DNA of 64,000 bases from an uncultured archaeon (GCA_938083505.1 CALKCF010000001.1:17388-81387), one strand, 5' to 3'. Shown: positions 24,920-51,216, counted from the stretch's first letter. Translations and numbers: made by a program. The notes: a model not told the origin generated them from the sequence alone.

Positions 24920-25108
24920 AACAATATTAGTTATAATTAGTTATAGTTGTCCCTGAATATAAATGCTTTAGAAGTTTCAGCCAGCTGTATAACGATTACA
25001 ATAAAGCCTTAACGTAGAATTGTTACGTACTCGAAACGCTTAAATAAAAACGCATAATGCAATTTACTAAAGAGAGGCGGTGAACGTGAGGGATTGCCTT
25101 TTCTTCAT

Positions 25109-25141
25109 GGCTGGCTATAGCTGGTATTGCTATAGCCAGCC
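25109..25141. promoter_or_regulatory. perfect 13-bp inverted repeat GGCTGGCTATAGC-(7)-GCTATAGCCAGCC in the divergent mobA/aspartate-kinase intergenic region
   Basis: Read directly from the sequence. It lies about 60-95 nt upstream of the aspartate kinase start. Confidence 0.5.
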
Positions 25142-25202
25142 AGACGCCTCTCTCTAAAGCTATCTTCTCCTTTTTGGGTTTTTGTGGCTTTGGAGGGAGG
25201 TC

Positions 25203-26426
25203 ATGTCTATGAAAGATATAATAGTCGTAAAGCTTGGCGGCTCTGTCCTCCAAGACTCTAAGGCTCTTGAAAAGGCAGCGTCTTGGGTAAAGGATCTGCT
25301 AAAGGAACATGGACTGGTGGTGGTGGTCTCAGCACTAAAGGGTATGACCGATGAGCTTTTGAAGATGGCTAAGGAGGTTAACCCAGAGGTTCGACCCGAA
25401 GTACTCGACGAAATTTTGGCGATGGGTGAAAGGACGAGTGCTAGACTTTTCACTGCTGCGTTGAATAGGTTCGGCGTTGATGCTGTTTTGGTAGACCCAT
25501 CCAACGATTACTGGCCTGTAATAACGGACGACGTACATTTTGACGCAAACCCCATCTATCACGAAACAGAGAAAAGATGTAAGGAGAAATTATTGCCATT
25601 GATTGAGGCTGGCAAAGTCCCTGTTGTGTGCGGATACATTGGTGTTAGTACCTCGGGTAAGATAACTACGTTAGGTAGGGGTGGTAGTGATACGACGGCC
25701 ATACTGCTCGGTAGTTGTCTAAAAGCTGCGGAAGTTGTCTTAATTAAAGATGTTGAGGGTATATATTCAGGAGATCCAGATAAGGTCAGTAATGCTGAGA
25801 TACTTGAGGTACTTAACGTAGATGAGGCCAGGTTGTTGACAGAAGGAGGCGCAAAGGTCATTCATTCAAAGGCATTAAGATACCTATCAGAAGGTCTCAG
25901 GTTAAGAGTGTCCAGTATGGAAAGCTTAGGAAGATCAGGAACCGTCATAATTGGCACCCTTCCAAAACTTGATGTTGTCAAACACCCGGCTAAAGCAACC
26001 ATGATAACGATACTTTCGAGAAACTCTAATGGTGTTTCGCTCGTTAAACTTGTCGTGGAGTTTGTCCAAAAACACAACGGAGAAATCCTCAACATAACGA
26101 CTGATGAGAAATCCATCATAGTTTATACGAATTTAGATACCAATTTTATGGATAAGTTACATAAGGAGGTTGTAGAATCCGGTATGGGCAAGGCCATAAG
26201 CTTTTTCGAAAGGTTGTCTGCTATAACAATAAGCGGCAGGATGCTTGAAATAAGTCCGGGTGTAATACATAAAGTTGTAGAGCCGCTCGCACGACACGGC
26301 ATAAATATCTATGGTTTGGTGACCATAAGCTCATCTATCAGAATATTCGTGTCCGCAAAAGATGCAGATAAGGCGACATATCTTATAAAAGCAAACTTGG
26401 AGGTGGAGTTGAATGAAACAAATTAA
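25203..26426 (+). CDS. aspartate kinase
   Basis: The start is ATG 25203, preceded by GGAGGGAGG. The kinase domain (VVKLGGSVL) and C-terminal ACT domains are present. Confidence 0.85.
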   Translation: MSMKDIIVVKLGGSVLQDSKALEKAASWVKDLLKEHGLVVVVSALKGMTDELLKMAKEVNPEVRPEVLDEILAMGERTSARLFTAALNRFGVDAVLVDPSNDYWPVITDDVHFDANPIYHETEKRCKEKLLPLIEAGKVPVVCGYIGVSTSGKITTLGRGGSDTTAILLGSCLKAAEVVLIKDVEGIYSGDPDKVSNAEILEVLNVDEARLLTEGGAKVIHSKALRYLSEGLRLRVSSMESLGRSGTVIIGTLPKLDVVKHPAKATMITILSRNSNGVSLVKLVVEFVQKHNGEILNITTDEKSIIVYTNLDTNFMDKLHKEVVESGMGKAISFFERLSAITISGRMLEISPGVIHKVVEPLARHGINIYGLVTISSSIRIFVSAKDADKATYLIKANLEVELNETN

Positions 26427-27468
26427 AGTTGCGGTACTTGGAGCTACCGGAATGGTTGGTCAACGATATGTGAGCATGCTTTCGAGACATCCGTGGTTCA
26501 AGCTTTCATGTCTAACAGGGAAGGAGTCTGCCGGTAAGAAGTACGGCGAAGCAGTGAGGGGCAACCCGATCGACATCCCGTCTAGCGTAGCGGATATGGA
26601 AGTTTTACCTAATGAGCCAAAGTACGTTGACGCAGATCTAGTATTCTCTCCACTACCAACCGAAGTTGCTCGCGAATCGGAGCCACTTTTTGCGCAAGAA
26701 GGTTTTCCCGTTGTGAGCGATGCTTCTGCTCATAGGATGGAGAAGGATGTCCCACTTATCGTACCTGAGATAAACCCGGAACATATAGAGTTAATAGACG
26801 TTCAGAAAAAGAATAGAAAGTGGGATGGGTACATCGTAACCACACCAAACTGCACGACCATAGGTTTAATCATGCCCCTCAAACCACTACACGATGCTTA
26901 CGTTCTCAAGAAAGTCGTGGTCACTACGATGCAAGCGGTCTCAGGTGCGGGCTTCCCAGGAGTACCATCGCTTTCCATACTTGGGAACGTTATACCATAC
27001 ATATCCGGTGAGGAAGATAAAGTGGAAAAAGAAACGCAGAAGATACTGGGGAAGTTCAAGAGTAACCATATAGAGCCCGCTCCTATAATCATTGAGGCCA
27101 GCTGCACCAGAGTTCCTACAATAGACGGACACCTAGAATCCGTGTATATTGAGACAGAGAAACCCGTGAACATAAACGATGCAAAAAAGGTGTTAGCAGA
27201 ATTCAAAGGTCTTCCACAGGAGCAGGCTCTCCCTACAGCTCCTGATAAACCGATAATTGTCATGGAAGAGGAAGATAGGCCGCAACCAAGGCTTGACATA
27301 TATGCTGGAAGTGTTCCGGGAATGAGTGCGGTCGTTGGGAGAGTAAGGTCTGCAAAAGACGAGAGAGCTCTGAAGTTCTTTGTTCTTAGCCATAATACGA
27401 TAAGAGGTGCTGCCGGCATAGCAATACTGACAGCTGAGTTGCTACACGTATCCGGGAGGATAGAGTAA
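26413..27468 (+). CDS. asd: aspartate-semialdehyde dehydrogenase
   Basis: 351 aa with N-terminal VAVLGATGMVGQ and the active-site Cys region. It overlaps the aspartate kinase gene by 14 nt. Confidence 0.85.
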   Translation: MKQIKVAVLGATGMVGQRYVSMLSRHPWFKLSCLTGKESAGKKYGEAVRGNPIDIPSSVADMEVLPNEPKYVDADLVFSPLPTEVARESEPLFAQEGFPVVSDASAHRMEKDVPLIVPEINPEHIELIDVQKKNRKWDGYIVTTPNCTTIGLIMPLKPLHDAYVLKKVVVTTMQAVSGAGFPGVPSLSILGNVIPYISGEEDKVEKETQKILGKFKSNHIEPAPIIIEASCTRVPTIDGHLESVYIETEKPVNINDAKKVLAEFKGLPQEQALPTAPDKPIIVMEEEDRPQPRLDIYAGSVPGMSAVVGRVRSAKDERALKFFVLSHNTIRGAAGIAILTAELLHVSGRIE

Positions 27469-27470
27469 AC

Positions 27471-28268
27471 ATGGTTTTCGGAAAGCAGGTCAGGTTGAGT
27501 AGAATAACAGAAAAAGGAAAGATGCTTTGCATACCGATGGACCACGGTGTTACTATAGGGCCGGTCAAAGGCTTAGACAAGATATTTGATATAATAGAAA
27601 AGATTAGCTTTGGAGGAGCCACGGCCGTTTTGACACAAAAAGGTATACTGAGGATGATGCCCAAGCCCTTGAACGTTGGCACTATAATGCATGTCTCTGC
27701 AAGTACGTCATTAGGACCATCACCTAACTTCAAAGTGAGAGTTTCGAGTGTGGAAGAAGCCCTAAGGCTCGGAGCAGATGCTGTTTCCGTTCACGTTAAT
27801 ATAGGATGTAGTGATGAGCCGAAGATGCTGAGAAAGCTTGGAATGCTTGCTGATGAGTGCGACGAATGGCAAGTACCGTTCATAGCGATGATGTATCCGA
27901 GGGGCGAGAACATAAAGAATCCAAACGACCCTGAGATCGTAGCACATGTTGCAAGGATAGGTGCTGAGCTTGGAGCTGACATCGTAAAGACGCCCTACAC
28001 AGGCACTCTGGAGACATTTAGGAAGGTTGTGGATGGTTGCCCAGTTCCCATAGTCATAGCCGGTGGACCGAAAGCAGAGAGCGACCTAGAAGTTTTGAAG
28101 ATGGTAAGGGAAGCTATGGACGCCGGCGCTATCGGCGCAGCAATAGGCAGGAACGTTTTTCAACATGATAATCCGTTTGCGATAACCAAAGCGCTCAGGG
28201 CCATAATAATTGAGGATTACACACTCAATGAGGCGCTGGAGGTGCTTAAGGACGCATCTACCAAGTAA
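27471..28268 (+). CDS. 2-amino-3,7-dideoxy-D-threo-hept-6-ulosonate (ADH) synthase, class I aldolase DhnA-type (archaeal shikimate-pathway entry)
   Basis: 265 aa with a DhnA/class-I FBP-aldolase-like fold (Schiff-base Lys in the IVKTPYTG region). It lies between asd and DHQ synthase II. Confidence 0.7.
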   Translation: MVFGKQVRLSRITEKGKMLCIPMDHGVTIGPVKGLDKIFDIIEKISFGGATAVLTQKGILRMMPKPLNVGTIMHVSASTSLGPSPNFKVRVSSVEEALRLGADAVSVHVNIGCSDEPKMLRKLGMLADECDEWQVPFIAMMYPRGENIKNPNDPEIVAHVARIGAELGADIVKTPYTGTLETFRKVVDGCPVPIVIAGGPKAESDLEVLKMVREAMDAGAIGAAIGRNVFQHDNPFAITKALRAIIIEDYTLNEALEVLKDASTK

Positions 28269-29310
28269 AAAGGAGTTTTGCATAGATTTAAGAGACTGGA
28301 ACGACGAAATCTTTAGAGAAGCTTTCTCGAGAGGGATTACTACATATTATTGTGATCCTACCAACATTCCACAAGAGCTTAGACAAAAGCTGACGATATA
28401 CTCGGATTTGTCGACCGGAGATGTCATTGTTATACCTCTCGGTAAAGAGGTACCGCAGGTGAGAAGGTTTGCGGTGTATGCTGTCGTGCTAAATTATAGC
28501 GATGTAGAGAAGTTAATCTCCGCGGTAAAGCTTGGCGCCGAGGCTTTGATAGTTGATGCTAAAGATTGGAAGATAATACCGTTAGAAAACATAATCGCAT
28601 ACCTGCAAAAAACATCCACGAAGCTTATGGCGAAGGTCGATAGCTTAGAGGAGATCGAAACTATGTACGGCATCTTGGAGAGAGGGGTTGATGTTGTCTT
28701 GTTTAAACCAAAGAGCAAAGAGGATGTTAGCAGAATATTTGAGGCGATCAGCTACATCGTAAGTGTTCAGCTAACTTCGGTGGAAGTTACAGAAGTCAAG
28801 GATGTAGGGATGGGGGATAGGGCATGTATCGATACGATATCTATTTTATCGATAGGGGAGGGCATGCTCGTTGGAAGTAAAGCAAGTTTTCTATTCCTCA
28901 TTCACAGTGAATCGTTAGGTTCTTCGTTCACGGAACCAAGACCCTTCAGGGTAAATGCAGGTGCGATACATAGTTATGTTTTAACACCTACTGGTGGAAC
29001 TAAGTACTTATCAGAGATAAAGGCAGGTGATAGAGTCCTGATAATTAACATGCAAGGCTCGGCAAGACCCGCCACAGTCGGCAGGGTTAAGATAGAGAGG
29101 AGGCCGATGAGACTTATCAGGGCTGAGGCTAACGGTGAAGAGGGTACTGTTGTTTTGCAAAACGCTGAGACCATAAGGCTTATAGGACCAGACGGTAAGC
29201 CCGTCCCGGTAACTGAAGTTAAACCTGGTGATAAAGTGTTAGCGTACATAAGCAGAGAGAAGGCTAGGCATTTCGGAGTGGCGATTGACGAATTCATAGT
29301 GGAGAAATAA
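28210..29310 (+). CDS. 3-dehydroquinate synthase II (archaeal type)
   Basis: The region RPFRVNAGAIHSYVLTPTGGTKYLSEIKAGDRVLII is conserved in the MJ1249-type DHQS-II family. The start is uncertain (see findings). Confidence 0.75.
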   Translation: MRITHSMRRWRCLRTHLPSKKEFCIDLRDWNDEIFREAFSRGITTYYCDPTNIPQELRQKLTIYSDLSTGDVIVIPLGKEVPQVRRFAVYAVVLNYSDVEKLISAVKLGAEALIVDAKDWKIIPLENIIAYLQKTSTKLMAKVDSLEEIETMYGILERGVDVVLFKPKSKEDVSRIFEAISYIVSVQLTSVEVTEVKDVGMGDRACIDTISILSIGEGMLVGSKASFLFLIHSESLGSSFTEPRPFRVNAGAIHSYVLTPTGGTKYLSEIKAGDRVLIINMQGSARPATVGRVKIERRPMRLIRAEANGEEGTVVLQNAETIRLIGPDGKPVPVTEVKPGDKVLAYISREKARHFGVAIDEFIVEK

Positions 29311-29341
29311 TTCTCGATTATTCATTGAAACTGGTGAAACG

Positions 29342-30049
29342 ATGTTTACGAGAGCAAAACTGTTCAAATTATGTGTATCGACATTTGGAAGAGACATACA
29401 CTCTTTGAGAGATTCTGTAGTTAAGGCAATAAGCGTTGGCGCAGACCTCGTAGAGGTTAGGCTTGATTATTTAGATGAATTGAACGTTAATGTTGTAAGC
29501 TCAACGCTAAAGCCTTACATGAATAGACTCGTGTTAACGCTCAGAGCGCATTATGAGAATGGACTATTTGAAGGTGATGAAAAGGAAAGAGCAGAAATCC
29601 TCAAACAATTGGGTCGGGAAGGTCCAGCGTATGTCGATATAGAGCTTCGTTCTCCTATGTTTCAGGACTTATCAAAAGAGTTGATGAAGGCAGGTACCGC
29701 TTTAATAGTTTCATGGCATGACTTTGAGAAGACACTAGATACCGACACACTCAGAAGAATAGCCAATATGGCCATGATTGGTGGAAGTATTGCGAAAGTT
29801 GTAACTATGGCGAGATCTTTCAGCGATAACCTTAAGGTCCTCTCGCTATACCATACAGGCGATAAACACAGACTTGTAGCCTTCTGTATGGGAACAGAAG
29901 GTGTCTTATCTCGGTTTCTCTCGGTAATGTTGGGAGCACCCTTCATGTATGTCTCATTGCCTGGGGAGCCAACAGCACCCGGCCAACCCAGCATCACCGA
30001 AGCAAAGGAGATCTTCCGCATGCTTTCGTTAAGCTGTTGTGGAGAGTGA
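29342..30049 (+). CDS. aroD: 3-dehydroquinate dehydratase, type I
   Basis: 235 aa with VGADLVEVRLDYL and the Schiff-base Lys region. Confidence 0.8.
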   Translation: MFTRAKLFKLCVSTFGRDIHSLRDSVVKAISVGADLVEVRLDYLDELNVNVVSSTLKPYMNRLVLTLRAHYENGLFEGDEKERAEILKQLGREGPAYVDIELRSPMFQDLSKELMKAGTALIVSWHDFEKTLDTDTLRRIANMAMIGGSIAKVVTMARSFSDNLKVLSLYHTGDKHRLVAFCMGTEGVLSRFLSVMLGAPFMYVSLPGEPTAPGQPSITEAKEIFRMLSLSCCGE

Positions 30050-30928
30050 TTGGGCATATCACCACAAACACGCTTCGGTAACAAAAGACTCATAGGCCTC
30101 ATTGGACAACCGGTTAAGCATTCGATATCACCGGATATTCACAATGCTGCTTTTAACTATATGAACCTCGATTACTTTTACATCGCCTTTGATGTGAAGG
30201 AAAGGGCCTTAGGACTTGCTGTTAAGGGTCTTAAGGCCCTAGGAGCTTTAGGTTTTAATGTAACGATACCATATAAGCAGAAGGTCGTGAAGTTCCTGGA
30301 TAAACTTGTAGACGATGCTAAAGTCCTAAAGACCGTAAATACTGTGGTGATCGAAAAAGATAGAATGATTGGGTACAATACAGATGTTTTAGGTATAATG
30401 AATACCCTGGTGCCTTACAAAGACGTAATAAGTGGTTGTGAAGCATTGATTCTTGGTGCAGGTGGAGGCGCTTCTGCCGCCGCCTTAGCCTTGGCCAGAT
30501 TTGGTTGTAATCACATAACGTTTGCTAACCGAACACTTTCAAGGGCCCGTAGGCTTGCGAACTTCCTACGTCAGAAGATTAAAATTTCTGCAGAGGGCAT
30601 AGGTCTTTCGGCCAGCAACTTATCTGCAATTGCCAAAACTTGTGGTATTGTAATCAACGCGACACCCATCGGTATGTGGCCGAATAACAATAATTCATTG
30701 CTTAAAAAGGAACAGATACGAAGTGGCTCTATAATAATGGATATGGTATACAATCCTTCTGAAACAGCACTCCTTAGAGAAGCAAAGCTTGCAGGTGCTA
30801 TATGCGTCTCCGGACTTGACATGTTGGTATTTCAGGCTGCAGAGTCCTTTAAATTATGGACATCCTTAGAGCCGCCGATAGAGGTTATGAAGGAGGTTGC
30901 CTTAGAGGCAATAGGTCGTTTTGTATGA
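30050..30928 (+). CDS. aroE: shikimate 5-dehydrogenase
   Basis: LIGLIGQPVKHSISPDIHNAAF at the N-terminus and the GAGGGASAAA Rossmann motif are present. Confidence 0.85.
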   Translation: MGISPQTRFGNKRLIGLIGQPVKHSISPDIHNAAFNYMNLDYFYIAFDVKERALGLAVKGLKALGALGFNVTIPYKQKVVKFLDKLVDDAKVLKTVNTVVIEKDRMIGYNTDVLGIMNTLVPYKDVISGCEALILGAGGGASAAALALARFGCNHITFANRTLSRARRLANFLRQKIKISAEGIGLSASNLSAIAKTCGIVINATPIGMWPNNNNSLLKKEQIRSGSIIMDMVYNPSETALLREAKLAGAICVSGLDMLVFQAAESFKLWTSLEPPIEVMKEVALEAIGRFV

Positions 30929-31803
30929 AGGCGAGCGCTAGGGCGCACGGCGCTATAACGATCGTTAACGCCATATCGATTGGTAAAGGGGCGGCCATGG
31001 GTATCGATCTTTATACAGAGGTCACTGTGGAGATAGGTGGTAAAGACATAGATGTGATGATAAAGGAAAACCCGGATGAGGATACAACACTAGCGAAGGT
31101 GGCGGTAAGCAAAGTCTTGAAGTTGGCACATATGAACTGCGGAGCTTATGTCGAAATCAGCTCAAACATACCAATCGGCAAGGGATTGAAGAGTTCCAGC
31201 GCAGCCGCCAATGCTATAGTTCTGGCTACGGCAAGGGCTGCGGATTTGAACTTGAATGATATTGAGATGTTAAATATAGCCGTTGACGCGGCAATAGAAG
31301 CTGGCGTTACCATAACCGGTGCATATGACGATGCGTGTGCTAGCTATTATGGCGGCATAGTCATCACAGATAATTTGAAGAGGCAGATTGTGAGAAAGGA
31401 TAAAGCTCCAGAAGACCTTTTTGTTATTTTGCTCGTCCCAGAATCAAAGAGTTATACTAAATTTTTTGATAAGAACGTACTTAAATCTATTGCATCATTT
31501 ATTGAGGATGTATATAGCATGACTCTGAACGGGGAATATTGGAAAGCCCTGACACTTAACGGCATACTTCATTCGGTGGTGTTAAATTACGACGCGAAAA
31601 AAGCTATAAACGCTATGAAAGCAGGAGCTTTAGCTGCCGGTCTATCTGGAACCGGGCCCGCCATTGCCGCTGTATGTAGAAAAGATGCTTTGGACAACGT
31701 TGTCAATACATTAAGCGAAAAGAGATGTAAGCTCATAATAGCTAAACCGAATAACAAAAAAGCTTACTCATGGAGAGGTGGTCGTGTTGCAGGTTTCGAT
31801 TAA
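30925..31803 (+). CDS. aroK: shikimate kinase, GHMP-kinase type (archaeal)
   Basis: The start ATG at 30925 overlaps the aroE stop (ATGA). The GHMP motif PIGKGLKSSSAAANA is present. Confidence 0.75.
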   Translation: MKASARAHGAITIVNAISIGKGAAMGIDLYTEVTVEIGGKDIDVMIKENPDEDTTLAKVAVSKVLKLAHMNCGAYVEISSNIPIGKGLKSSSAAANAIVLATARAADLNLNDIEMLNIAVDAAIEAGVTITGAYDDACASYYGGIVITDNLKRQIVRKDKAPEDLFVILLVPESKSYTKFFDKNVLKSIASFIEDVYSMTLNGEYWKALTLNGILHSVVLNYDAKKAINAMKAGALAAGLSGTGPAIAAVCRKDALDNVVNTLSEKRCKLIIAKPNNKKAYSWRGGRVAGFD

Positions 31804-33076
31804 ACCCTCAGTGATATATGGTAGGGTACAAGCACCTCCCAGCAAAAGCTACAGCCATAGGGCTATAATAGCTGCCTCTATGTCAGATGGCGAATGTGTT
31901 GTAGAAAACGTTTCAAAATCCGATGATGTTCTTGCCACAATTAGTGCGTGTAAAAAATTTGGCACCTCAATAGTCGAAGAAGGTGATAAGCTCATCATCG
32001 ACGGCCTCTCAACACCTAAGACACCAGAGGATGTTGTGAACGTTCAGAACTCGGGAACGACATTGAGGATAATGACTGGTATAAGTTGCTTAGTTCAAGA
32101 CGGGTACGTAATACTCACGGGCGATGAGAGTATAAGAAGAAGGCCAATGCAGCCACTCCTTGACGCCCTTAACATGCTTGGAGGGGAGTGCTGGTCTACA
32201 AGGCTTAATGGTTGCGCTCCCATTGTCGTTAAAGGTGGTGGATTAAAGGGTGGGAATGCCTGGATGAATGGTAAAGTATCTTCCCAGTTCGTATCATCCA
32301 TACTGTTCTCATCACCGAAGGCTACAAGCGATACGACGCTCACGATACAAGGAGATCTCGTATCAAAACCTTACGTTGACGCCACCATACATGTACTAGA
32401 ACAGTTCAACATTCATATAGAAAGGGAAGGATACAAAGTATTTCGCATTGCTTCACAGCAGAATTTTAAGCCCACGCATTTTGTAGTGCCCGGAGATTTT
32501 GGGCTTGCCTCCTTCATGATGGCTGCAGCGCTTATTACAGATGGTTCAGTAAATGTTGAAGGGCTTAATCAAGAGTTACCGCAAGCCGATGCTGCCATAG
32601 TTGATATACTTATCAAGATGGGGGCCAGCGTTAAGTTGGATTACAGTTCTAGGCGTGTAACAGTTAGTGGAGGTGGAAGGCTTAAGGGCGGTAGCTTTAA
32701 CTTATCCGATTCTCCAGACCTTTTGCCAGTCTTAGCAGTCCTAGCTACCAAATGTGAAGGGACTGTTGAAATAACAGGTGTGGAACATGCAAGGTTTAAG
32801 GAAAGCGATAGGGTTAGTGCCCTTGCACATGCTCTTTCTATGATAGGAATGAATGTAAAAGAGATGCCGGAGGGATTAAGCATAACGCAAGGTAAATTGG
32901 TTAAGCATGCAGTACTCGACTCAAAAGGTGACCATAGACTCTTCATGGCCTATTGTCTTTTAGGGCTCATCCTAGAAGAGGGGTGCACTATAGCGGGAGC
33001 AGAGTGCATGAACGTATCTTATCCGAATTTTCTTAGAGACCTTGCTAGTTTAGGTGCAAAAATTGAGCTCATATAA
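31778..33076 (+). CDS. aroA: 3-phosphoshikimate 1-carboxyvinyltransferase (EPSP synthase)
   Basis: GTG start overlapping the aroK end. PSKSYSHRAII and the conserved two-domain EPT fold are present. Confidence 0.85.
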   Translation: MVVLQVSIKPSVIYGRVQAPPSKSYSHRAIIAASMSDGECVVENVSKSDDVLATISACKKFGTSIVEEGDKLIIDGLSTPKTPEDVVNVQNSGTTLRIMTGISCLVQDGYVILTGDESIRRRPMQPLLDALNMLGGECWSTRLNGCAPIVVKGGGLKGGNAWMNGKVSSQFVSSILFSSPKATSDTTLTIQGDLVSKPYVDATIHVLEQFNIHIEREGYKVFRIASQQNFKPTHFVVPGDFGLASFMMAAALITDGSVNVEGLNQELPQADAAIVDILIKMGASVKLDYSSRRVTVSGGGRLKGGSFNLSDSPDLLPVLAVLATKCEGTVEITGVEHARFKESDRVSALAHALSMIGMNVKEMPEGLSITQGKLVKHAVLDSKGDHRLFMAYCLLGLILEEGCTIAGAECMNVSYPNFLRDLASLGAKIELI

Positions 33077-33142
33077 CTATACTAAGTTTAAATTTAAATA
33101 ATAGTTAGGCTAACCTAATTCTGACAAACTCTATGGAAGGTA

Positions 33143-40430: not shown

Positions 40431-42806
40431 TCAGTTTTTAGATTTTGTAAGTTCGTTGAGTTTTTCTAAAATTATTTTCTGTTCTATGCTGGCGACGAGC
40501 TGCTTCGTTTTGATCACAACGTCTGGGTTGACGCTTATTGAATCGATACCACATCTAACTAGGAATTCTGTGAATTCTGGATAAACGCTGGGTGCCTGTC
40601 CGCAAATCGAAACGGTAACACCATTTTCGTGCGCAACTTTTATCAGATTTTCTATTGCCCTCAGTACAGCCGGGTCTCTTTCGTCAAAATATCTGGCGTC
40701 TATGCTGGGCAATATGGCAGAATCTCTGTCGGTCGCCAAGATGAACTGAGTGAGGTCGTTAGAACCTATGCTGAAACCATCGCATAACTTGCTAAACTCA
40801 TCCGCCATGAGTATCGTGCTTGGAACTTCTGCCATCAGCCATACTTTAAAGTCCCTGCCTCTCTCAAGCCCTTCCTCTTTCATTATTTCTAAGACTCTTT
40901 CTATTTCCCATATGGTCCTCGCCATCGGTATCATGACCCAAACATTCTTCAGACCCCACTCATCTCTAACCTTTTTGATAGCCTTACATTCAAGTCTAAA
41001 TGCCTTTTCGTACCCTTTGCTTATATACCTCGCTGCCCCTCTCCATCCCATCATCGGGTTCGCTTCTTCAACCTCATACTTCTCTCCGCCCTTTAATTCT
41101 CTATACTCATTCGTCTTGAAGTCTGAAAACCTGACCACGACTGGTCTGGGTTGTATCGCCCTAGCAACTTTTGCAACCCCCTCAGCTAGCTTATCCACGA
41201 ACTTTTCAGGCTGACCTATCTCAATGAGATAATTTGGGTGCTCGCCTATGTATGAGGCCAGTATGAACTCTATGCGCATTAAACCTATACCATCAAAGGG
41301 CAGATCTGCATACTCATCTATCTTTTCTGGAACACCAAGGTTCATCATGATCTTCGTAGCTGTAACTGGCACATTAATTAAAGAGACTGGGGCACCAGAA
41401 GGTACGCCTGCGGGAGTCGGTGGTTTTGCCATTAACTCCTCTACAGCACCTTCGTATACTACGCCCGATTTAGCATCTACTGTGTAAATCTGTCCATCTT
41501 TCATAGTCTCGATGGCATCACCAGTGCCTACTATACAAGGTATGCCCAACTCTCTTGAAACTATAGCTGCATGACATGTCATTCCGCCTTCTGAGGTCAC
41601 TATTGCTGATGCTATCCGCATTGCAGGTACCCAATCGGGCGACGTCATTCGTGTGACTAATATGTCGCCCTTTCTCATCTGCCCTATGTTCTTTATGTCT
41701 AAGATCACCCTGGCAGTCCCAATAGCAATGCCAGGGCTTGCTGGCAATCCTTTCGTGACAACTTTTCTAGCAACCGTTACGGTTCCAGATTTTACAGGAA
41801 TTTCTGCAGCTGCTTTCTGGGACCATACAGTCTCAGGTCTAGACTGAACTATGAAAACATTGTATGGGAAAGGTACATCCATATCTATGCTCCATTCTAT
41901 GTCCTGTGGTGTGCCATAATGTTCTTCGATGCGGATAGCGAGTTCTGCGAGCCTATATATCTCTTCATCAGTTAAGCATGGCACATTCTGCTTCGAAAGT
42001 GGGACCCCATGCTTCTCCGTACCACCTTTTGGGCTGTAAATAATCTCGATAGTTTTCCTCGCAACCTTCTTTTCAATTATCTTTAATGTTTTTTTGTCAA
42101 CAATATATACATCTGGTGTTGCTTCACCGCTTACTACAGACTCGCCAAGTCCCCAGTTGGCTTCTATTAGTATCTTTGATGTATCACCTGTAATTGGGTG
42201 TAGTGTGAACATTACGCCAGAGGCTTTTGCATTAACCATCTTCTGAACTACTACACATAAGTACACACTCATATGATCGAATCCTTTCTCATGTCTGTAA
42301 AATGTTGCCCTTGACGTGAACAAGCTTGCCCAACATTTCTTAACACTTTCCAACAGTTGCTTTTCACCCCTAACGTTTAGGTAAGTTTCTTGCTGTCCAG
42401 CGAAGCTGGCCGATGTCAAATCTTCAGCAGTTGCACTCGATCTGACGGCTACAGGAGGGTCTATCATACCTACTTTCTCAGCCAACTTCCTGTACGCCGC
42501 TATTATCTCTACCTCTAACTCTTTGGGAATTTCTTGCTTTAATATGAGTCCCCTTATTTCTCTGGTTTTCTCTTCTATCGACTCAGGATTTGAGTAATTT
42601 ATTTCACTCAATATATTATGTATTTGTTCAACAATACCAGCCTTCTCTATAAAATACTTGTATGCATATGCTGTTATTGTAAAACCGGGAGGTACAGGTA
42701 TGCCAAGTCTTAACATTTCGCCTAAGTTCGCACCCTTACCCCCAACTAGGGGTACATCCTCCTTTGTTATTGACTCCAGTTCAAGTATGAACGTGTTCTC
42801 TTTCAT
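40431..42806 (-). CDS. ppsA: phosphoenolpyruvate synthase (PEP/water dikinase)
   Basis: 791 aa. The ATP-grasp N-domain, the phosphohistidine domain ([17 protein letters not shown]) and the PEP-utilising C-domain are all present. Confidence 0.9.
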
Positions 42807-46140: not shown

Positions 46141-47487
46141 TCATTCTCCTAATTCTGCACTAAACATACGCTTTGGTAACTTCAAAGGAGACCTTTTTAT
46201 AGATTTTATCATCCTTTTTAATAAATTATATTGTTGGAGGAGGTGTTTAACATCCTTCTCGGTCACACCCGATCCTCTAGCTATACGTCTTATCCTCGAG
46301 GAGTCTATAATGTGAGGGTTCTTCCTTTCCTCAGGCGTCATAGAAAGTAAAATCGCCGACCATTTTTCGATCTGCGTCTCAACCTTTTCGAATTCCTCGT
46401 CAGGTATATTGGGAAGTCCAGGTAAAGGTAACTTCGATATTATTTTCTTCAAAGGTCCTAATTTTTTCATTTCTTTAAACTGTTTTATAAAATCTTCTAA
46501 GGTAAACTTCCCGCTTGTAAAACTCTTGAGCCTCTCCTTGTTAAACTCCAACTCGGCAATCTTTACTCTTTCTAGTAAACCCTTTATGTCGCCTATACCT
46601 AAGAGCCTACCGATGAAGCCTTGTGGGTTAAACACTTCTATATCTTCGAGTTTCTCACCAGTTCCGATAAATTTTATCTGTGCTCCAGTGGCCGCCACGG
46701 CCGATAGTGCACCACCACCTTTCGCAGAGGTATCCATCTTAGTGATTATTATAGAACCTATTGGTGTTGCTTTGTGAAATGCCTCAGCATGTGCACCAGC
46801 CTGTTGACCTATCGTTCCATCCAACACCAACATTATTTCGTTAGGTTTAATGTTTTCCTCTAACATCTTCATCTCTTGCATTAGCGATTGTTGATCTTTG
46901 TGTCTACCAGCCGTATCTATAATTATAACGTTGCATTTTTGTTTGGATAGACATTCAACACCCTTTGTGGCTATAGTAATAGCATCACGCTCTTCAGGTA
47001 GGCCGTAGACAGGTATGTCTTTCCCATCAAGGAGTTGTCTTAACTGTTCATATGCTCCAGTTCTGAATGTGTCAGCGCAGACTACACCTACCGAGTAACC
47101 CAATTTCTTGAGATAATTTGCCAGCTTTGCAACTGTAGTTGTTTTTCCGTGTCCTTGTATGCCAACAACCATGATTACGTATTGTTTAGATTTATCTATG
47201 GTAATCTTATAGGGCTTCTCACCTATCAGCGATATAAGTTCCTCGTACACTATTTTTATAATTTGATCTTTCTTGGAAATACCTGGTGGAACTTTCTCTG
47301 TCAATGTCCTATTCCTTATCTTCTCCGAGAGTTTCATCACGAGCTCAACATTTACGTCCGAGACCAGGAGAGCTCTTTGTATGCCTCTTATGAGTTCCTC
47401 GACGACATTTTTATCTACACCTGTTGCAGACATGAATTTGCTTATGGCCTGTTTTATGAGTTCACCGAGCGAAGTTATCGGGTTCAA
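46141..47487 (-). CDS. srp54: signal recognition particle protein SRP54
   Basis: 448 aa. The N and G domains (GIQGHGKTTT, DTAGR) and the Met-rich M domain are present. Confidence 0.9.
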   Translation of the reverse strand: MNPITSLGELIKQAISKFMSATGVDKNVVEELIRGIQRALLVSDVNVELVMKLSEKIRNRTLTEKVPPGISKKDQIIKIVYEELISLIGEKPYKITIDKSKQYVIMVVGIQGHGKTTTVAKLANYLKKLGYSVGVVCADTFRTGAYEQLRQLLDGKDIPVYGLPEERDAITIATKGVECLSKQKCNVIIIDTAGRHKDQQSLMQEMKMLEENIKPNEIMLVLDGTIGQQAGAHAEAFHKATPIGSIIITKMDTSAKGGGALSAVAATGAQIKFIGTGEKLEDIEVFNPQGFIGRLLGIGDIKGLLERVKIAELEFNKERLKSFTSGKFTLEDFIKQFKEMKKLGPLKKIISKLPLPGLPNIPDEEFEKVETQIEKWSAILLSMTPEERKNPHIIDSSRIRRIARGSGVTEKDVKHLLQQYNLLKRMIKSIKRSPLKLPKRMFSAELGE

Positions 47488-47550
47488 GGCTTAAGTAATA
47501 CTCTGAAATCTAATAATAAAGGTTGCTCAAGAAGTATTTATCCTCAACGA

Positions 47551-48552
47551 GTGCATAAGGGGGTGGTGCCGCATTTGAACAGCAAAAGAACAGCCCTAAT
47601 AGAGGGTAGTTATGTCGAGGTAGGAGTCGGTGTGATATTTGCAGTAAAGGGTGTATCACATCCACCTAAAGGAGTTATAGCGGTTCCAAAGTATATAAAA
47701 ACAGAAGGTTCGGTCGTCAAATTGAACAGTTTCAATTCCTCGGTGTATTTTCTCAGGAGACATTTTCGTGAGTTTTTAATACATGACGAGTACTTAGGCC
47801 AAGAGATACCGTTTGTACCTTTAGAGGAAGTTAAGCGAGTTTACGACCCGATCGATGGAAAGAATTATTTGAGAAAAGATGCGATATCGAGCATTGCCCT
47901 TAAAATGGTGGAGCTAATTGTTGAGAACTCCGGAATAGAGAGCGACTTCGTTGGCATATCAGGTTCTATCCTTTTAGGTCTTTATAACGAATTCTCTGAC
48001 ATTGACATTGTAGTTTATGGTATAAAAAATTGTTTGAAAGTTTATGACGCCCTAAAACTTATGCGTGAAAATAATATAACTGAACATCTTTCTGAAGGTT
48101 TCTTAAAAAAAATCTTGGAATCTAGATCTGACACGCTCATGGAACCTATCGTGTGGATGATGCATGAAAAAAGAAAACTTACAAACGGAGTATTCATGGG
48201 AAGACCATATACACTAAAACTCACTCCTCTTCCAGAAGAATTTTGGGACAAATACGGAGAGCGCCGTTTTAAGGAAATCGGTAGGGCCATCATACGCTTC
48301 CAAGTAAGTGATGCTTCAAAGAGCATCTTCACACCTTGTCGTTATGAGATCAAGGTGATTAGTATAATCAATGGACCGGAGATTTCGTCGAAGGTATCTT
48401 CGATCGTTTCATTCAGAAGTAGATTTGCCGAACAGCTTCGCGAAGGTGAAGTTGGTATAGCTTCAGGAAGGCTTGAATTATCAAACGATGAGAGGTTAAG
48501 ATTATTTATCGGAAATGATCCACATGACCTTTTAATGGTCGATTCGTCTTGA
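47551..48552 (+). CDS. pol-beta-superfamily nucleotidyltransferase-domain protein, tandem paralog 1
   Basis: The minimal NTase motif is GISGSILLGLYNEFSDIDIVVYG (G-S x11 D-I-D). The start is chosen at the in-frame GTG 47551, because the longer ORF from 47149 runs antisense through srp54. Confidence 0.6.
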   Translation: MHKGVVPHLNSKRTALIEGSYVEVGVGVIFAVKGVSHPPKGVIAVPKYIKTEGSVVKLNSFNSSVYFLRRHFREFLIHDEYLGQEIPFVPLEEVKRVYDPIDGKNYLRKDAISSIALKMVELIVENSGIESDFVGISGSILLGLYNEFSDIDIVVYGIKNCLKVYDALKLMRENNITEHLSEGFLKKILESRSDTLMEPIVWMMHEKRKLTNGVFMGRPYTLKLTPLPEEFWDKYGERRFKEIGRAIIRFQVSDASKSIFTPCRYEIKVISIINGPEISSKVSSIVSFRSRFAEQLREGEVGIASGRLELSNDERLRLFIGNDPHDLLMVDSS

Positions 48553-49592
48553 GAAGGTTTAGAGACAAAGATTATGTTGAGACATATGAAGAGCGGTTCT
48601 TCTGTGTAGTAGGTGAAAACCATCCTCATGATAGACTTATTGCATATTTGAAGTACTTGCCGGGCGATGGTGCATGGTCACGGCGAGGAAAAAGTTTCAC
48701 GAGAGTCATACGTAGTTATTCGATGCAAGAGTTAGTTGATACGATAAATTTTCTTAAGAAAAATAAACCTGAGTATGTTTTTTACGACGAAACGATAGCT
48801 ACTGAGATGTCTTGTGTTCCACTTAACAAAGTGTTAAAATACTATAGATGCGACAAGAGATTACGTGAGATATTAAAGGATGATAGGTTAGATGAACTTG
48901 AGAGCAAAGCTAAGGAATTGGTGGAATCAATAGTAAAAGTTTCTGGTATAGACGTTAAAAACATGGGAATCACCGGCTCAATACTTTTAAAAATACATCA
49001 TCTGAATTCGGACATAGATCTTGTTGTATATGGAAAAAACAACTTTTGGAAAGTGTTACACAACTTATACTTGATTAATGATATTAAACCCCTCGACGAG
49101 TTAAGATTAAACGAGTGGATTAAGAGGATAAGTGCAAAATATCCTATTTCTATAGATATAATATCGAAGCTGGTAAAGTTGGTAAGGAACAAATACATTT
49201 ACAAAGGCACACCTTTCTCGATTCATGGTGTCAGATTAGATGAAGAAGTGACAAGAAGTTATGGTGAAGTTATTTACCGTAAATTAGGTCTTGCTAAAAT
49301 AAGGGCAGTAATTTCTGACGCATCAGAATCTTGTTTCACACCGGCTATTTATAGACTATCTAACGTGGAGACAGAACAAGAATACGCTAAAGATGTAGAA
49401 ATACTGGCATGTTTTGATGGAACATTCACAGCGATGTTTGATGAGGGTACATATATAGAGGCTTTCGGAAAGGTCGAGCGCGTTATGGAGCTAAAAAGTG
49501 GGCGCGTATTTAAATGGTTGCTAATCGGTACGTTTGAAGGTATGGACAAAGAGTATATTATTCCGATTAAAGAAGCACCTTTACCTCATTAA
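48549..49592 (+). CDS. pol-beta-superfamily nucleotidyltransferase-domain protein, tandem paralog 2
   Basis: The NTase motif is GITGSILLKIHHLNSDIDLVVYG. It shares blocks with paralog 1 (YVE...HP...IA..KY, ISDAS.S.FTP..Y). Its ATG overlaps the paralog-1 stop (ATGA). Confidence 0.65.
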   Translation: MRRFRDKDYVETYEERFFCVVGENHPHDRLIAYLKYLPGDGAWSRRGKSFTRVIRSYSMQELVDTINFLKKNKPEYVFYDETIATEMSCVPLNKVLKYYRCDKRLREILKDDRLDELESKAKELVESIVKVSGIDVKNMGITGSILLKIHHLNSDIDLVVYGKNNFWKVLHNLYLINDIKPLDELRLNEWIKRISAKYPISIDIISKLVKLVRNKYIYKGTPFSIHGVRLDEEVTRSYGEVIYRKLGLAKIRAVISDASESCFTPAIYRLSNVETEQEYAKDVEILACFDGTFTAMFDEGTYIEAFGKVERVMELKSGRVFKWLLIGTFEGMDKEYIIPIKEAPLPH

Positions 49593-51216
49593 GTACCCTA
49601 TTCTGTATCCACAGTGGTGTCCAAGGCATTAGTAGCAAGGCATACTTACCCTCAGCGGCACTCTTCAGAACATCTTTGCTTCCAACAGATAGGTATCCAG
49701 ATAAAAGATAGCGCGCATACTCTACCGATTTATTTACATCAAGATAGTGCCCTATGTAAAGCAAAACCTCTGTCAAGTCCCATACCTTATCACCATTAAA
49801 TGAGGCCTGTTCTAAGTCTACTATGTAAACTTTGTCTCCTGATATTATGAAGTTTTCAGGTTTACAATCACCCAACGTGATGTCATGTTGATGAATTTTT
49901 GCTAATTCTCTCCCAACCATAAACGCAGCTCTATTTAACACGTTTTGTTCACTTCCCGACATCCACATTTGCATAAGATCCTGCCCTTCAATGAATTTCT
50001 GGAACAACATCTTCTTCTTCCAATTTATATGATATATATCGGCTGTATTGAAACCAAGTTCCGCAAGCTTATTAACAAAGTAAATCTCATTAGAAAGCCT
50101 GACATCAGCTATGACCGAGAAGTTCTTCATACCAATAGTCCAGACCCTAGCCGCTACCCACTTCAGGTCCGTCCAGTTAATATATTTCTTAACAAAAACC
50201 CTCTCTTCTGAATCTTTTGTTCGGATTATGATGACATAAGTCGAGTTAAGCATCCGACCTATCTTCTTTATAAGTATCTGACTTCTGTTCACATTATAAA
50301 CTCGTTCAACGAAGTCCATGATGTCGAATCGTTCTTTTAACGGTTGTTTCCCTATGGCAGTTTTTATGAACACGTATTCCTCCGGATCAGGAAGGTCGTT
50401 TTCAGTTTTGTAAAATAGTGACCTCCTGATTTTTGAGTATAATTCCTCTGCTATGATGCGTGGATTAAAGCGTCCTGCATAACCATGCACGAGATACATT
50501 TTAAACATCTTTTCGAAATCATAAACTTTTTTAGCAAACTTATTCGCTTGGTTTAAAGTTGAAAGTATGAACTTGTTAGAAAGGCGATAATACTCACCAT
50601 CCTTGAGTAGAAAACCCTCAGATTCTAAATCAGCTAAGGCTAAGTAAAATCCTTTCATACAAATTTCTGTATTAACCTTCTTATAAGGTGCAGAAAATAT
50701 CTTCGAATAACTATAACGCGCCGGCGGATACATCAGAGCCCTTCTCCTTAACTTCTCGAAGAGAAAGTATTCAGGCTGCATCAAAAGCTCGTTTGCAGCC
50801 ATTCTGTGCTCCAGTATTAGATTCTCACATAATTCCAACACAACATTTTTCTTGTAAGTCTTGTCAAATTCTTTCAAAAGTGTGACACCTATAATAGGAT
50901 AAAACGGTGTTAGAAGTCTTCCTGCCACAAATTCTCCAAAAGAGCCGTTTCTCACATCATCCCTCATGATATTTTCATCAACCGCTAAAATGGCAACTGT
51001 AGGTTCAAAATTTCTTAGATAGTAGTATTTTATACCCTCCTTGAATTTTTTCACGATACATAACACATCCAAATCGCTACTCTTCAAAGAGTAGCCAGAA
51101 AGTTGAGAGCCGTAAATGCAAAGGCACGATATGTCATCTTCCTTAAAGATACTTTTCGAGGCTTCAAGTGCTATTTGAGCTAACATATTAAGCCTATCCT
51201 CTGGAATTGCATACAT
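49567..51216 (-). CDS. nucleotidyltransferase (ANT/KNTase-like) N-domain fused to protein-kinase-like (APH/Kdo-kinase/RIO-like) C-domain
   Basis: 549 aa. The N-terminal NTase motif is IYGSQLSGYSLKSSDLDVLCIV. The C-terminal 200 aa carry VFVKKY (candidate ATP-binding Lys), a catalytic loop HQHDITLGDCKPENFII and a metal-binding IVDLEQA (DFG-equivalent). Confidence 0.65.
   Translation of the reverse strand: MYAIPEDRLNMLAQIALEASKSIFKEDDISCLCIYGSQLSGYSLKSSDLDVLCIVKKFKEGIKYYYLRNFEPTVAILAVDENIMRDDVRNGSFGEFVAGRLLTPFYPIIGVTLLKEFDKTYKKNVVLELCENLILEHRMAANELLMQPEYFLFEKLRRRALMYPPARYSYSKIFSAPYKKVNTEICMKGFYLALADLESEGFLLKDGEYYRLSNKFILSTLNQANKFAKKVYDFEKMFKMYLVHGYAGRFNPRIIAEELYSKIRRSLFYKTENDLPDPEEYVFIKTAIGKQPLKERFDIMDFVERVYNVNRSQILIKKIGRMLNSTYVIIIRTKDSEERVFVKKYINWTDLKWVAARVWTIGMKNFSVIADVRLSNEIYFVNKLAELGFNTADIYHINWKKKMLFQKFIEGQDLMQMWMSGSEQNVLNRAAFMVGRELAKIHQHDITLGDCKPENFIISGDKVYIVDLEQASFNGDKVWDLTEVLLYIGHYLDVNKSVEYARYLLSGYLSVGSKDVLKSAAEGKYALLLMPWTPLWIQNRVLNEVKVLL

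Follow-up and report, generated by a model that had tools for sequence, protein, structure and literature searches.

The window analysed here is a stretch of 64,000 nucleotides (64 kb) from an uncultured archaeon (GCA_938083505.1 CALKCF010000001.1:17388-81387). Its feature of interest is a block of eight plus-strand genes that opens with ask and asd, for aspartate kinase and aspartate-semialdehyde dehydrogenase, continues with ADH synthase (ADHS) and 3-dehydroquinate (DHQ) synthase II, and ends with aroA, for 5-enolpyruvylshikimate-3-phosphate (EPSP) synthase. Genes were called from a listing of open reading frames (ORFs) together with Pfam and NCBIfam profile searches across the window. The eight families named in an earlier note on this DNA are all present, each matched by profile search, in a co-directional block spanning 25182/25209-33076, and a leader containing a short, aromatic-rich ORF lies in front of ask (Table 1). 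The closest asd matches are proteins of metagenome-assembled genomes (MAGs) labelled Nitrososphaerota/Aigarchaeota (89-91% identity), and the best named ask match is Ca. Terraquivivens tikiterensis (85%). On the evidence of these matches we assign the operon to an Aigarchaeota-like (Terraquivivens-related) archaeon.

Table 1. Features of the operon and its leader, in window coordinates (SD, Shine-Dalgarno sequence)
Feature	Position	Strand	Remarks
TATA-like box TTAAATAA within GCTTAAATAA (25040-25049)	25042..25049	+	putative operon promoter
Element A, purine-rich leader-ORF SD, AAGAGAGGCG	25070..25079	+	inverted repeat; potential pairing with element B
Leader ORF of 23 codons and a stop, (M)RDCLFFMAGYSWYCYSQPDASL	25086..25157	+	GTG start; stop 25155-25157
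Perfect 14-bp hairpin of the Tyr/Trp codon region, TGGCTGGCTATAGC / GCTATAGCCAGCCA	25108..25142	+	partly conserved in relatives
Element B, pyrimidine-rich anti-SD, CGCCTCTCTCT (last leader codons)	25145..25155	+	pairs with ask SD
Two T5 tracts, TTTTTGGGTTTTT, in loop between element B and ask SD	25171..25183	+	possible archaeal oligo-T terminators
Element C, ask SD, GGAGGGAGG	25192..25200	+	
ask, aspartate kinase with ACT domains	25209..26426	+	profile matches; alternative start 25203
asd, aspartate-semialdehyde dehydrogenase, archaeal/eukaryotic type	26413..27468	+	profile matches
ADH synthase (AroA'), class I aldolase fold	27471..28268	+	Schiff-base Lys173; Tyr142
3-dehydroquinate synthase II (AroB')	28228..29310	+	alternative start TTG 28210
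aroD, type I 3-dehydroquinate dehydratase	29342..30049	+	profile matches
aroE, shikimate dehydrogenase	30050..30928	+	profile matches
aroK, archaeal GHMP-family shikimate kinase	30925..31803	+	292 aa, same length as relatives' gene calls
aroA, EPSP synthase	31778..33076	+	start 31778, 31784 or 31787

The ask product, as a monofunctional, ACT-regulated aspartate kinase should, matches PF00696 (165 bits) and, at its C-terminus, the ACT profile PF13840 (33 bits), and exceeds the TIGR00657 cut-off (257.8 versus 208.7). DHQ synthase II covers positions 9-344 of the 344 in PF01959 (363 bits) and scores below all NCBIfam sub-type equivalog cut-offs (best 341 versus 392), so we take it to be a family member of an unmodelled subtype. 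The aroK product reaches 257.8 against the TIGR01920 cut-off of 126.85, with both the N- and C-terminal GHMP domains (PF00288 and PF08544) found, and the aroA product reaches 414 against the TIGR01356 cut-off of 287.

Junctions were read from inspection of start codons and from the gene calls of relatives. They are the 14-nt overlap of ask and asd, a 2-nt gap between asd and ADHS, an overlap of ADHS and DHQ synthase II of 41 nt (with the ATG start) or 59 nt (TTG), a 31-nt gap before aroD, 0 nt between aroD and aroE, a 4-nt overlap of aroE with aroK when the latter starts at its ATG, and a 17-26 nt overlap of aroK and aroA. The earlier description of the junctions as overlapping or very short holds, since every one is an overlap or a gap of at most 31 nt; the asd/ADHS junction, which had been given as an overlap, is a gap. 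As a small correction, ATG 25209 is a more likely start of ask than 25203 because it is the only one kept in relatives and lies 8 nt past the SD.

The leader in front of ask is ~130 nt long (25070-25208). Its ORF begins at a GTG 8 nt past GAGG and contains six Phe, Tyr or Trp codons, all within 12 codons. In the minimum free energy structure (-72.3 kcal/mol, z = -7), elements B and C form a helix of ~22 bp that reaches the ask start codon, and the ask SD is paired to the 3' end of the leader ORF with a probability of 1.0. Element B can alternatively pair with element A, the leader's own SD. A scan for sigma-70 promoters and bacterial-type hairpin terminators, which is ill-suited to archaea, returns counts at or below shuffle expectation and finds no terminator in the leader. 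Oligo-T suffices for termination in archaea, and the leader contains the two T5 tracts. No Rfam family is found in the window leader or at seven other loci at either gathering or E-value thresholds.

Both the peptide and the two helices are conserved in the lineage of the window. We aligned its leader with those of loci L001, L166/167, L169, L173, L171 and L176, whose asd products, where known, are 68-91% identical. The seven leaders share the same frame, with peptides such as RDCLFLTNGYSYYRYSELDASL, RDCLFLTTGYSYYRYSETGASL, RDCLFPNSWYFPYYRYSQQAAPL, RDCLFLLPGWRFGYYRYSQPVASL, RATGLTYTGFSTFTTFSYYYRW and RDCLFLTASYRWYRYSELDASL, and this is the only frame open in six relatives, the other two being closed. 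Insertions and deletions in the ORF are in-frame, the position of the stop is kept, and Trp and Tyr are exchanged for one another among relatives. Upstream, GCTTA[A/T]ATA is invariant among seven relatives' leaders. The B:C helix is 85% paired across relatives, with four pairs changed on both sides, and for the A:B helix the figure is 89.6% in six distinct relatives, three pairs being changed on both sides; slid controls for both helices are 30-46% paired. In L171, for example, B is CCGCCTCC, C is GGGGGTGG and A is GGAGGCG. The alignment shows both alternative helices conserved, with compensatory changes. In the public records examined, the leader ORFs lack gene annotation.

We next consider how widely the gene order and the leader are distributed. 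Using ADH synthase as the anchor in species-representative genomes, asd as the anchor in metagenomes, and individual asd and ask homologues, we classified 166 sequences. One or both of ask and asd lie directly upstream of ADHS in 39 of them, as ask-asd-ADHS (23 sequences), asd-ADHS (13) or ask-ADHS (3). ADHS comes first in 62, ask-asd occurs without ADHS in 17, and asd stands alone in 48. The gene order of the window is kept in relatives at 89-91% asd identity and also at 55-68%. Linked forms are found in the close relatives of the window, in Ca. Calditenuis and other Aigarchaeota, in several non-ammonia-oxidising Nitrososphaeria, in some Nitrosopumilales, and in Jordarchaeia and Freyarchaeia; metagenome contigs carry the linkage too. 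In Odinarchaeia, asd is inside the operon, between aroD and aroE. The complete genome of Conexivisphaera calida has the order asd-ADHS-DHQSII-aroD-CBS-aroE-aroK-aroA-aroC-CM, with a CBS-domain gene between aroD and aroE and with aroC and a chorismate-mutase-domain (CM) gene after aroA (L083, 13645-14070). The most extended form is an 11-gene supraoperon in a Nitrososphaerales MAG (L084, 1987-19943), ask-asd-ADHS-DHQSII-aroD-E-K-A-aroC-CM/aminotransferase-tyrA (tyrA for prephenate dehydrogenase), which stands back to back with a divergent trpEGDCFBA operon. That trp operon shows no Trp-codon leader, and its trpE looks leaderless.

The soil ammonia oxidisers (Nitrososphaeraceae) are without the ask/asd linkage; their loci (L006-L081) carry an insertion of 1-3 kb between DHQ synthase II and aroD, and two different ADHS loci (L061 and L081) come from a single Nitrososphaeraceae MAG (JAICQW01). 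The archaeal contig L004, with asd-ADHS-DHQSII, is assigned to a Bifidobacteriaceae MAG, probably through a binning error. The distribution suggests that the placing of precursor-supply genes at the head of an aromatic operon is ancient, and conserved, in Nitrososphaerota and Asgard archaea. Recurrence of the linkage over large distances in varying forms shows that the gene order is no accident and that the supply of aspartate semialdehyde is functionally coupled to the ADH synthase route. The reading of the gene order as a functional module from precursor to EPSP, offered in the earlier note, is supported by this recurrence in very distant archaea, from the L084 supraoperon and from the aromatic-codon leader.

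The leader follows the linkage. Where ask or asd is the first gene, 130-200 nt separate the TATA-like box from the start codon. Where ADHS is first, in the soil ammonia oxidisers, the box lies ~25 nt before the ATG, so these mRNAs would be effectively leaderless; the Nitrososphaeraceae loci share, ~25-45 nt upstream of ADHS, a motif that resembles a promoter and is strongly conserved, (C)ATATCACTTTTAAGTAGG or AAGTTATAAGTAGG. Most of the ask/asd-led leaders contain ORFs comparable to that of the window. In other lineages the nucleotide sequence is unrelated and the kind of ORF is the same, as in Calditenuis (MGRVNLLGFAFTAYTYFYFWEG) and Odinarchaeia (..CWRYNFFGEYSTLTSLYSA); further examples are ..FKFTGFTTYAYFYAWKS, LKGDSRGGSVYRWAFGFYYF, MELTKNACIVFFFSFWSYYYFALA, ..FFFGFWSYGYFALA, MNSHSTTSTTSWHFYSFGYFYYN and ..STVFYAYSYSFSYF.

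The excess of aromatic codons was assessed by a single automatic procedure applied to real and dinucleotide-shuffled sequences (300 shuffle sets), in which the best ORF from start to stop whose end lay 25-140 nt ahead of the gene was chosen and aromatic codons were counted in its last 12 codons. The 28 non-redundant ask/asd-led leaders contain 116 aromatic codons, compared with a mean of 49.8 and a maximum of 64 in the shuffles (reached in 0 of 300), and 11 of the 28 are individually significant at p <= 0.01. Neither control group shows an excess: 50 upstream regions with ADHS first contain 83 (shuffle mean 72.8, reached in 37 of 300 sets), and 57 upstream regions of unlinked asd contain 61 (shuffle mean 61.4, reached in 166 of 300). 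Aromatic-rich leader ORFs are thus specific to ask/asd-led aro operons. Thr codons are enriched 1.33-fold across the leaders (p = 0.08 overall), strongly in some lineages only, and multivalent control by Thr is therefore not claimed as a general rule.

Two further features of the leaders were noted. Near the N-terminus of most leader peptides is a motif R/G-[GDE]-x-x-[LVI]-[YF] (RDCLF, RGGSVY, RGDLLY, RGDHLY, GERLY and others), found at 25086-25106 in the window and at loci L012, L018, L026, L005, L060, L084, L083, L093, L095, L096 and L123. It is kept at the peptide level through synonymous changes, and could serve either as the first of the regulatory codons or as an element that arrests the nascent peptide. 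In Jordarchaeia, Freyarchaeia and one Thermoproteota MAG, two small hairpins, (T)TGG-TGATGNNNNG-CCA(A), precede ask/asd (L065 7500-7690, L068 7420-7610, L079 8660-8800 and L029 2470-2560, with L092 the same as L029). They lie inside an ORF reading ..VMPCQY..VMPCQFI and a stop. The loops start with a C-box-like UGAUG; the stems are conserved, and the loop codons vary (PC, QR, SR).

Taken together, these observations lead us to the following reading, to which we give a probability of about 60%: the block is an aspartate-to-EPSP operon of an Aigarchaeota-like archaeon, with ordinary ask and asd orthologues, controlled by an aromatic-sensing translated leader with an SD-sequestering helix. The eight genes would be carried on a single transcript, and translation of the 23-codon leader would report the supply of aromatic aminoacyl-tRNAs by ribosome-mediated attenuation, most economically at the level of translation. 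When these tRNAs are plentiful, the leader would be read through, the ribosome would leave, and the B:C anti-SD:SD helix would shut off translation of ask. When they are scarce, a ribosome would stall on the Tyr/Trp codons (25116-25133), 12-25 nt upstream of element B, and by covering the start of B would free the ask SD. The A:B pairing, which hides the leader's own SD, may add a further layer of control, and the T5 tracts may add termination. It is also possible that the N-terminal R-[GD]-x-x-[LVI]-[YF] motif contributes a nascent-peptide component. The mixture of Phe, Tyr and Trp codons would suit an operon for the common pathway, and, because the leader that carries them stands before ask, the whole unit, including ask and asd, seems to be controlled as an operon of the aromatic pathway. 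As a broader proposition, we lean slightly towards the view that bacterial-style ribosome-mediated attenuation operates in archaea (Aigarchaeota, other Nitrososphaerota and Odinarchaeia), where a Phe/Tyr/Trp leader, mixed in some lineages with Thr codons, would gate shikimate operons led by ask/asd.

Several points weigh against this interpretation. The aromatic statistic of the window leader is not significant by itself (p ~0.08-0.2), and its case therefore rests on relatives and structure. The covariation alignment behind the structural argument comprises six distinct sequences only. The curated leader peptides contain 25.6% Phe, Trp and Tyr compared with 6.6% in the operon proteins (Trp 4.9-fold, Tyr 4.4-fold and Phe 3.3-fold), but they were picked by eye and the count is biased in consequence; the shuffle test is free of such bias. 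Sequestration of the SD by the 3' end of the leader ORF, clear in the lineage of the window, fails as a universal rule: other lineages use other folds. L104, L116, L121 and L145 have a hairpin and then TTTT before the SD. The ask/asd-led leaders of Conexivisphaera and L084 contain short, weakly aromatic ORFs, which like the others begin with the R-[GD]-x-x-[LVI]-[YF] motif in their N-terminal part, and the Jordarchaeia and Freyarchaeia have another leader type, the tandem hairpin. Finally, if ask and asd are the sole copies in the genome, repression under aromatic sufficiency would throttle Thr and Met synthesis as well, and leaky expression or another input would be needed.

This last difficulty bears directly on the earlier suggestion that the pair is a second, specialised copy for the aromatic pathway, with another pair elsewhere serving Thr, Met and Lys. 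Control apparently through aromatic codons only would be awkward for a sole copy, and the leader of the window lacks codons for Thr, Lys and Ile and has a single internal one for Met. The ask product also falls just under the closest NCBIfam equivalog (NF005159, 358 versus a cut-off of 379) and, at 116 bits to characterised kinases, is distant from them. Against a second copy, the asd product is well over its equivalog cut-off (TIGR00978, 442.7 versus 301.2), and an ask orthologue (51-52% identity) stands alone, with no adjacent asd, in Caldarchaeum MAGs, where asd heads the aro operon. Variants with ask only or asd only in the operon exist, and in such genomes one partner or both must therefore be shared. 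Some leaders mix Thr and aromatic codons (six Thr codons in L171 and four in L104), as expected for a shared enzyme. A search of the 64 kb with Pfam and through the other large ORFs gave no second ask or asd, and likewise no aroC, hom, thrB/C, dap gene, DAHP synthase or class I fructose-bisphosphate aldolase (FBA). The same pair (asd 51-53% identical) also occurs in dapA-dapB-ask-asd-lysA operons of other archaea, described below. On balance, a dedicated copy is unproven and rather unlikely; the genes are most likely ordinary orthologues by these comparisons, and probably the only copies in the genome.

The dapA-dapB-ask-asd-lysA operons are found on two archaeal metagenome contigs (L103, 972-6380, and L139, 927-7041), and many of the 17 ask-asd loci that lack ADHS follow the end of a dapB-like gene. 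As in the window, the pair belongs to the operon of an aspartate semialdehyde-consuming pathway, the consumer here being diaminopimelate/lysine synthesis; these operons have no long leader before ask because ask is internal. Since stand-alone, ask-only or asd-only and lysine-operon forms all exist, the pair behaves like a cassette for precursor supply that attaches to its main consumer. In the lineages with the linkage, ask and asd would be transcribed and controlled together with their largest consumer. The precursor-supply pair thus goes with the pathway that uses most of its product, aromatic here and lysine elsewhere. The solitary ask genes of Caldarchaeum also follow a TATA-like box and a short ORF, which reads MSIVEFSRRGFHDQRLPLYLL in L174 (7895-7975) and MAFYG in L175 (7965-7985), each ending in a stop codon; the L174 ORF includes the GCTATAGC palindrome.

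The same palindrome enters into an alternative account of the leader, in which it acts as an RNA that binds a metabolite or a protein (riboswitch or RNA-protein switch), or carries a DNA operator such as the GCTATAGC palindromes, and the ORF is incidental. The fold of the leader is very stable, both alternative helices are conserved and the palindromes are repeated within it; in addition, the Jordarchaeial, Freyarchaeial and L029 leaders keep two small hairpins more than they keep a peptide. However, across lineages both sequence and fold change wholly, whereas an ORF that follows an SD and clusters Phe, Tyr and Trp codons persists, its frame kept by in-frame indels. No conserved unpaired core resembling an aptamer was seen, there is no Rfam match, and the palindromes themselves consist of Tyr-Ser codons (TAT AGC). 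We regard this account as improbable, and clearly more so than a second copy of ask and asd, and retain the translated leader as the preferred explanation.

The product of the third gene exceeds the ADH synthase equivalog cut-off (TIGR01949, 338.2 versus 299.45) and falls below those of paralogous families: archaeal class I FBA (198 versus 430), LsrF (175 versus 297) and BagB/FevI (229 versus 500). Among proteins in the PDB, its score is 295 bits with MJ0400, the characterised ADH synthase, but 128 bits with a true class I FBA; the fold is DeoC/LacD. Its DIVK(173)T and MMY(142)PRG motifs align to K184 and Y153 of MJ0400, the Schiff-base lysine and an active-site tyrosine of that enzyme, and both residues are invariant across 16 homologues. 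These comparisons with true FBA models and structures bear out the earlier assignment of the gene at 27471, and place the protein in the ADH synthase (AroA') family with a predicted activity of transaldol condensation of aspartate semialdehyde with DKFP (6-deoxy-5-ketofructose-1-phosphate). That the aldolase and DHQ synthase II make some other product (e.g. 3-amino-4-hydroxybenzoate, as GriI/GriH do), or that the aldolase is a glycolytic FBA, with ask and asd adjacent for other reasons, seems very improbable. In its favour, FBA, LsrF and GriI/BagB belong to the same fold families, one database labels a relative a GriI-type synthase and FBA-type activity has been reported for a haloarchaeal homologue, whose sugar substrate is in dispute (PMC4162585). 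Against it, the FBA and BagB/FevI scores given above are far under their cut-offs, as is that of the BagC/FevH model (194 versus 750), and dehydroquinate-consuming enzymes come next in the same operon in nearly all relatives.

In the pathway we propose for the operon, ask and asd would convert aspartate to aspartate semialdehyde, ADH synthase would condense this with a keto-sugar phosphate, DHQ synthase II would cyclise the product to dehydroquinate, and aroD, aroE, the GHMP-type aroK and aroA would carry dehydroquinate to EPSP. Within the 64-kb window there is no DKFP synthase and nothing that would supply the sugar partner (DKFP or an equivalent), so the earlier term 'self-contained' was too strong for this module. 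The source of DKFP is often unidentified (PMC9012536).

Chorismate synthase was correctly placed outside the cluster and feoAB next downstream of it, as the annotation of the window confirms. The feoAB genes were considered as part of the operon and rejected, since they adjoin it only in the closest relatives (L001/L002) and the 66-nt gap between aroA and feoA (33077-33142) contains a TATA-like TTTAAATTTAAATAA; on account of this box they probably form a separate transcription unit. Divergent neighbours upstream are Cdc48, RtcB, AIR-synthase-like and NTP-transferase genes. Phosphoenolpyruvate (PEP) is the co-substrate of EPSP synthase, and a gene of the PEP synthase/pyruvate phosphate dikinase family lies 7 kb downstream of aroA on the minus strand (40431-42806); no linkage is implied. 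Further downstream, four successive ORFs at 46409-51216 (122, 467, 347 and 549 aa, of which the fourth is on the minus strand) match no Pfam family at E <= 1e-5.

Comparisons with known systems help to place these findings, first for the pathway and then for its control. In methanococci, the genes of the DKFP/aspartate semialdehyde route are scattered in the genome and are not known to be linked to asd and ask. The route to dehydroquinate is described there with the MJ0400 ADH synthase and MJ1249 DHQ synthase II of Methanocaldococcus jannaschii and in Methanococcus maripaludis (White 2004 and Porat 2006, cited in PMC9012536 and PMC3082918). The window has the same two enzyme families and the same canonical downstream steps, including a GHMP-type shikimate kinase, but here, and in many Nitrososphaerota and Asgard archaea, ask and asd head the operon. 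A literature search found no prior description of a linkage between asd/ask and aroA'/aroB', although such absence is not proof. The linkage in TACK and Asgard archaea provides independent genomic support for aspartate semialdehyde as an in vivo aromatic precursor outside the methanogens, the organisms in which the route was established.

Attenuation by leader peptides is considered a bacterial mechanism, exemplified by the amino acid operon leaders pheL, trpL, thrL and hisL of E. coli. The window leader resembles these in having (i) a short, SD-preceded ORF in the 5' leader, (ii) clustered codons for the end products, (iii) overlap of the ORF with mutually exclusive RNA helices and (iv) a mixture of amino acids where the pathway is shared. 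It differs in belonging to the archaea and in that, in the lineage of the window, the regulated helix hides the ask SD where the bacterial systems build a hairpin-plus-U terminator. A search of the literature for an archaeal leader-peptide attenuator returned bacterial matches only, which again is not proof of absence. If our interpretation is correct, this would be the first described family of amino-acid leader-peptide attenuators in the archaeal domain, and translation of the leader would be functionally coupled to expression of the downstream genes in these archaea. Leaders of this family from several archaeal phyla offer concrete, mutable constructs for testing attenuation, and the unannotated ORFs may serve as markers of aromatic-pathway operons and their regulation in uncultured archaea.

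The closest parallels for the proposed switch itself are two bacterial systems. In the actinobacterial LEU element upstream of leuA, the run of Leu codons itself pairs with the leuA SD (PMC1262725), whereas in the window the partner of the SD is formed by the codons just past the aromatic cluster, in other organisms and for other amino acids. In ermC/ErmCL, a stalled leader ribosome melts the helix that hides a downstream ribosome-binding site, the stall arising from the drug together with a specific nascent peptide (PMC5499644). The same melting of a helix by a ribosome on the leader ORF is proposed here, but with hungry aromatic codons as the cause of the stall; the R-[GD]-x-x-[LVI]-[YF] motif leaves room for a nascent-peptide contribution in the archaeal leaders as well. 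With its aromatic-codon leader ORF and predicted SD-sequestering switch, the operon is thus a concrete candidate for ribosome-mediated attenuation in archaea.

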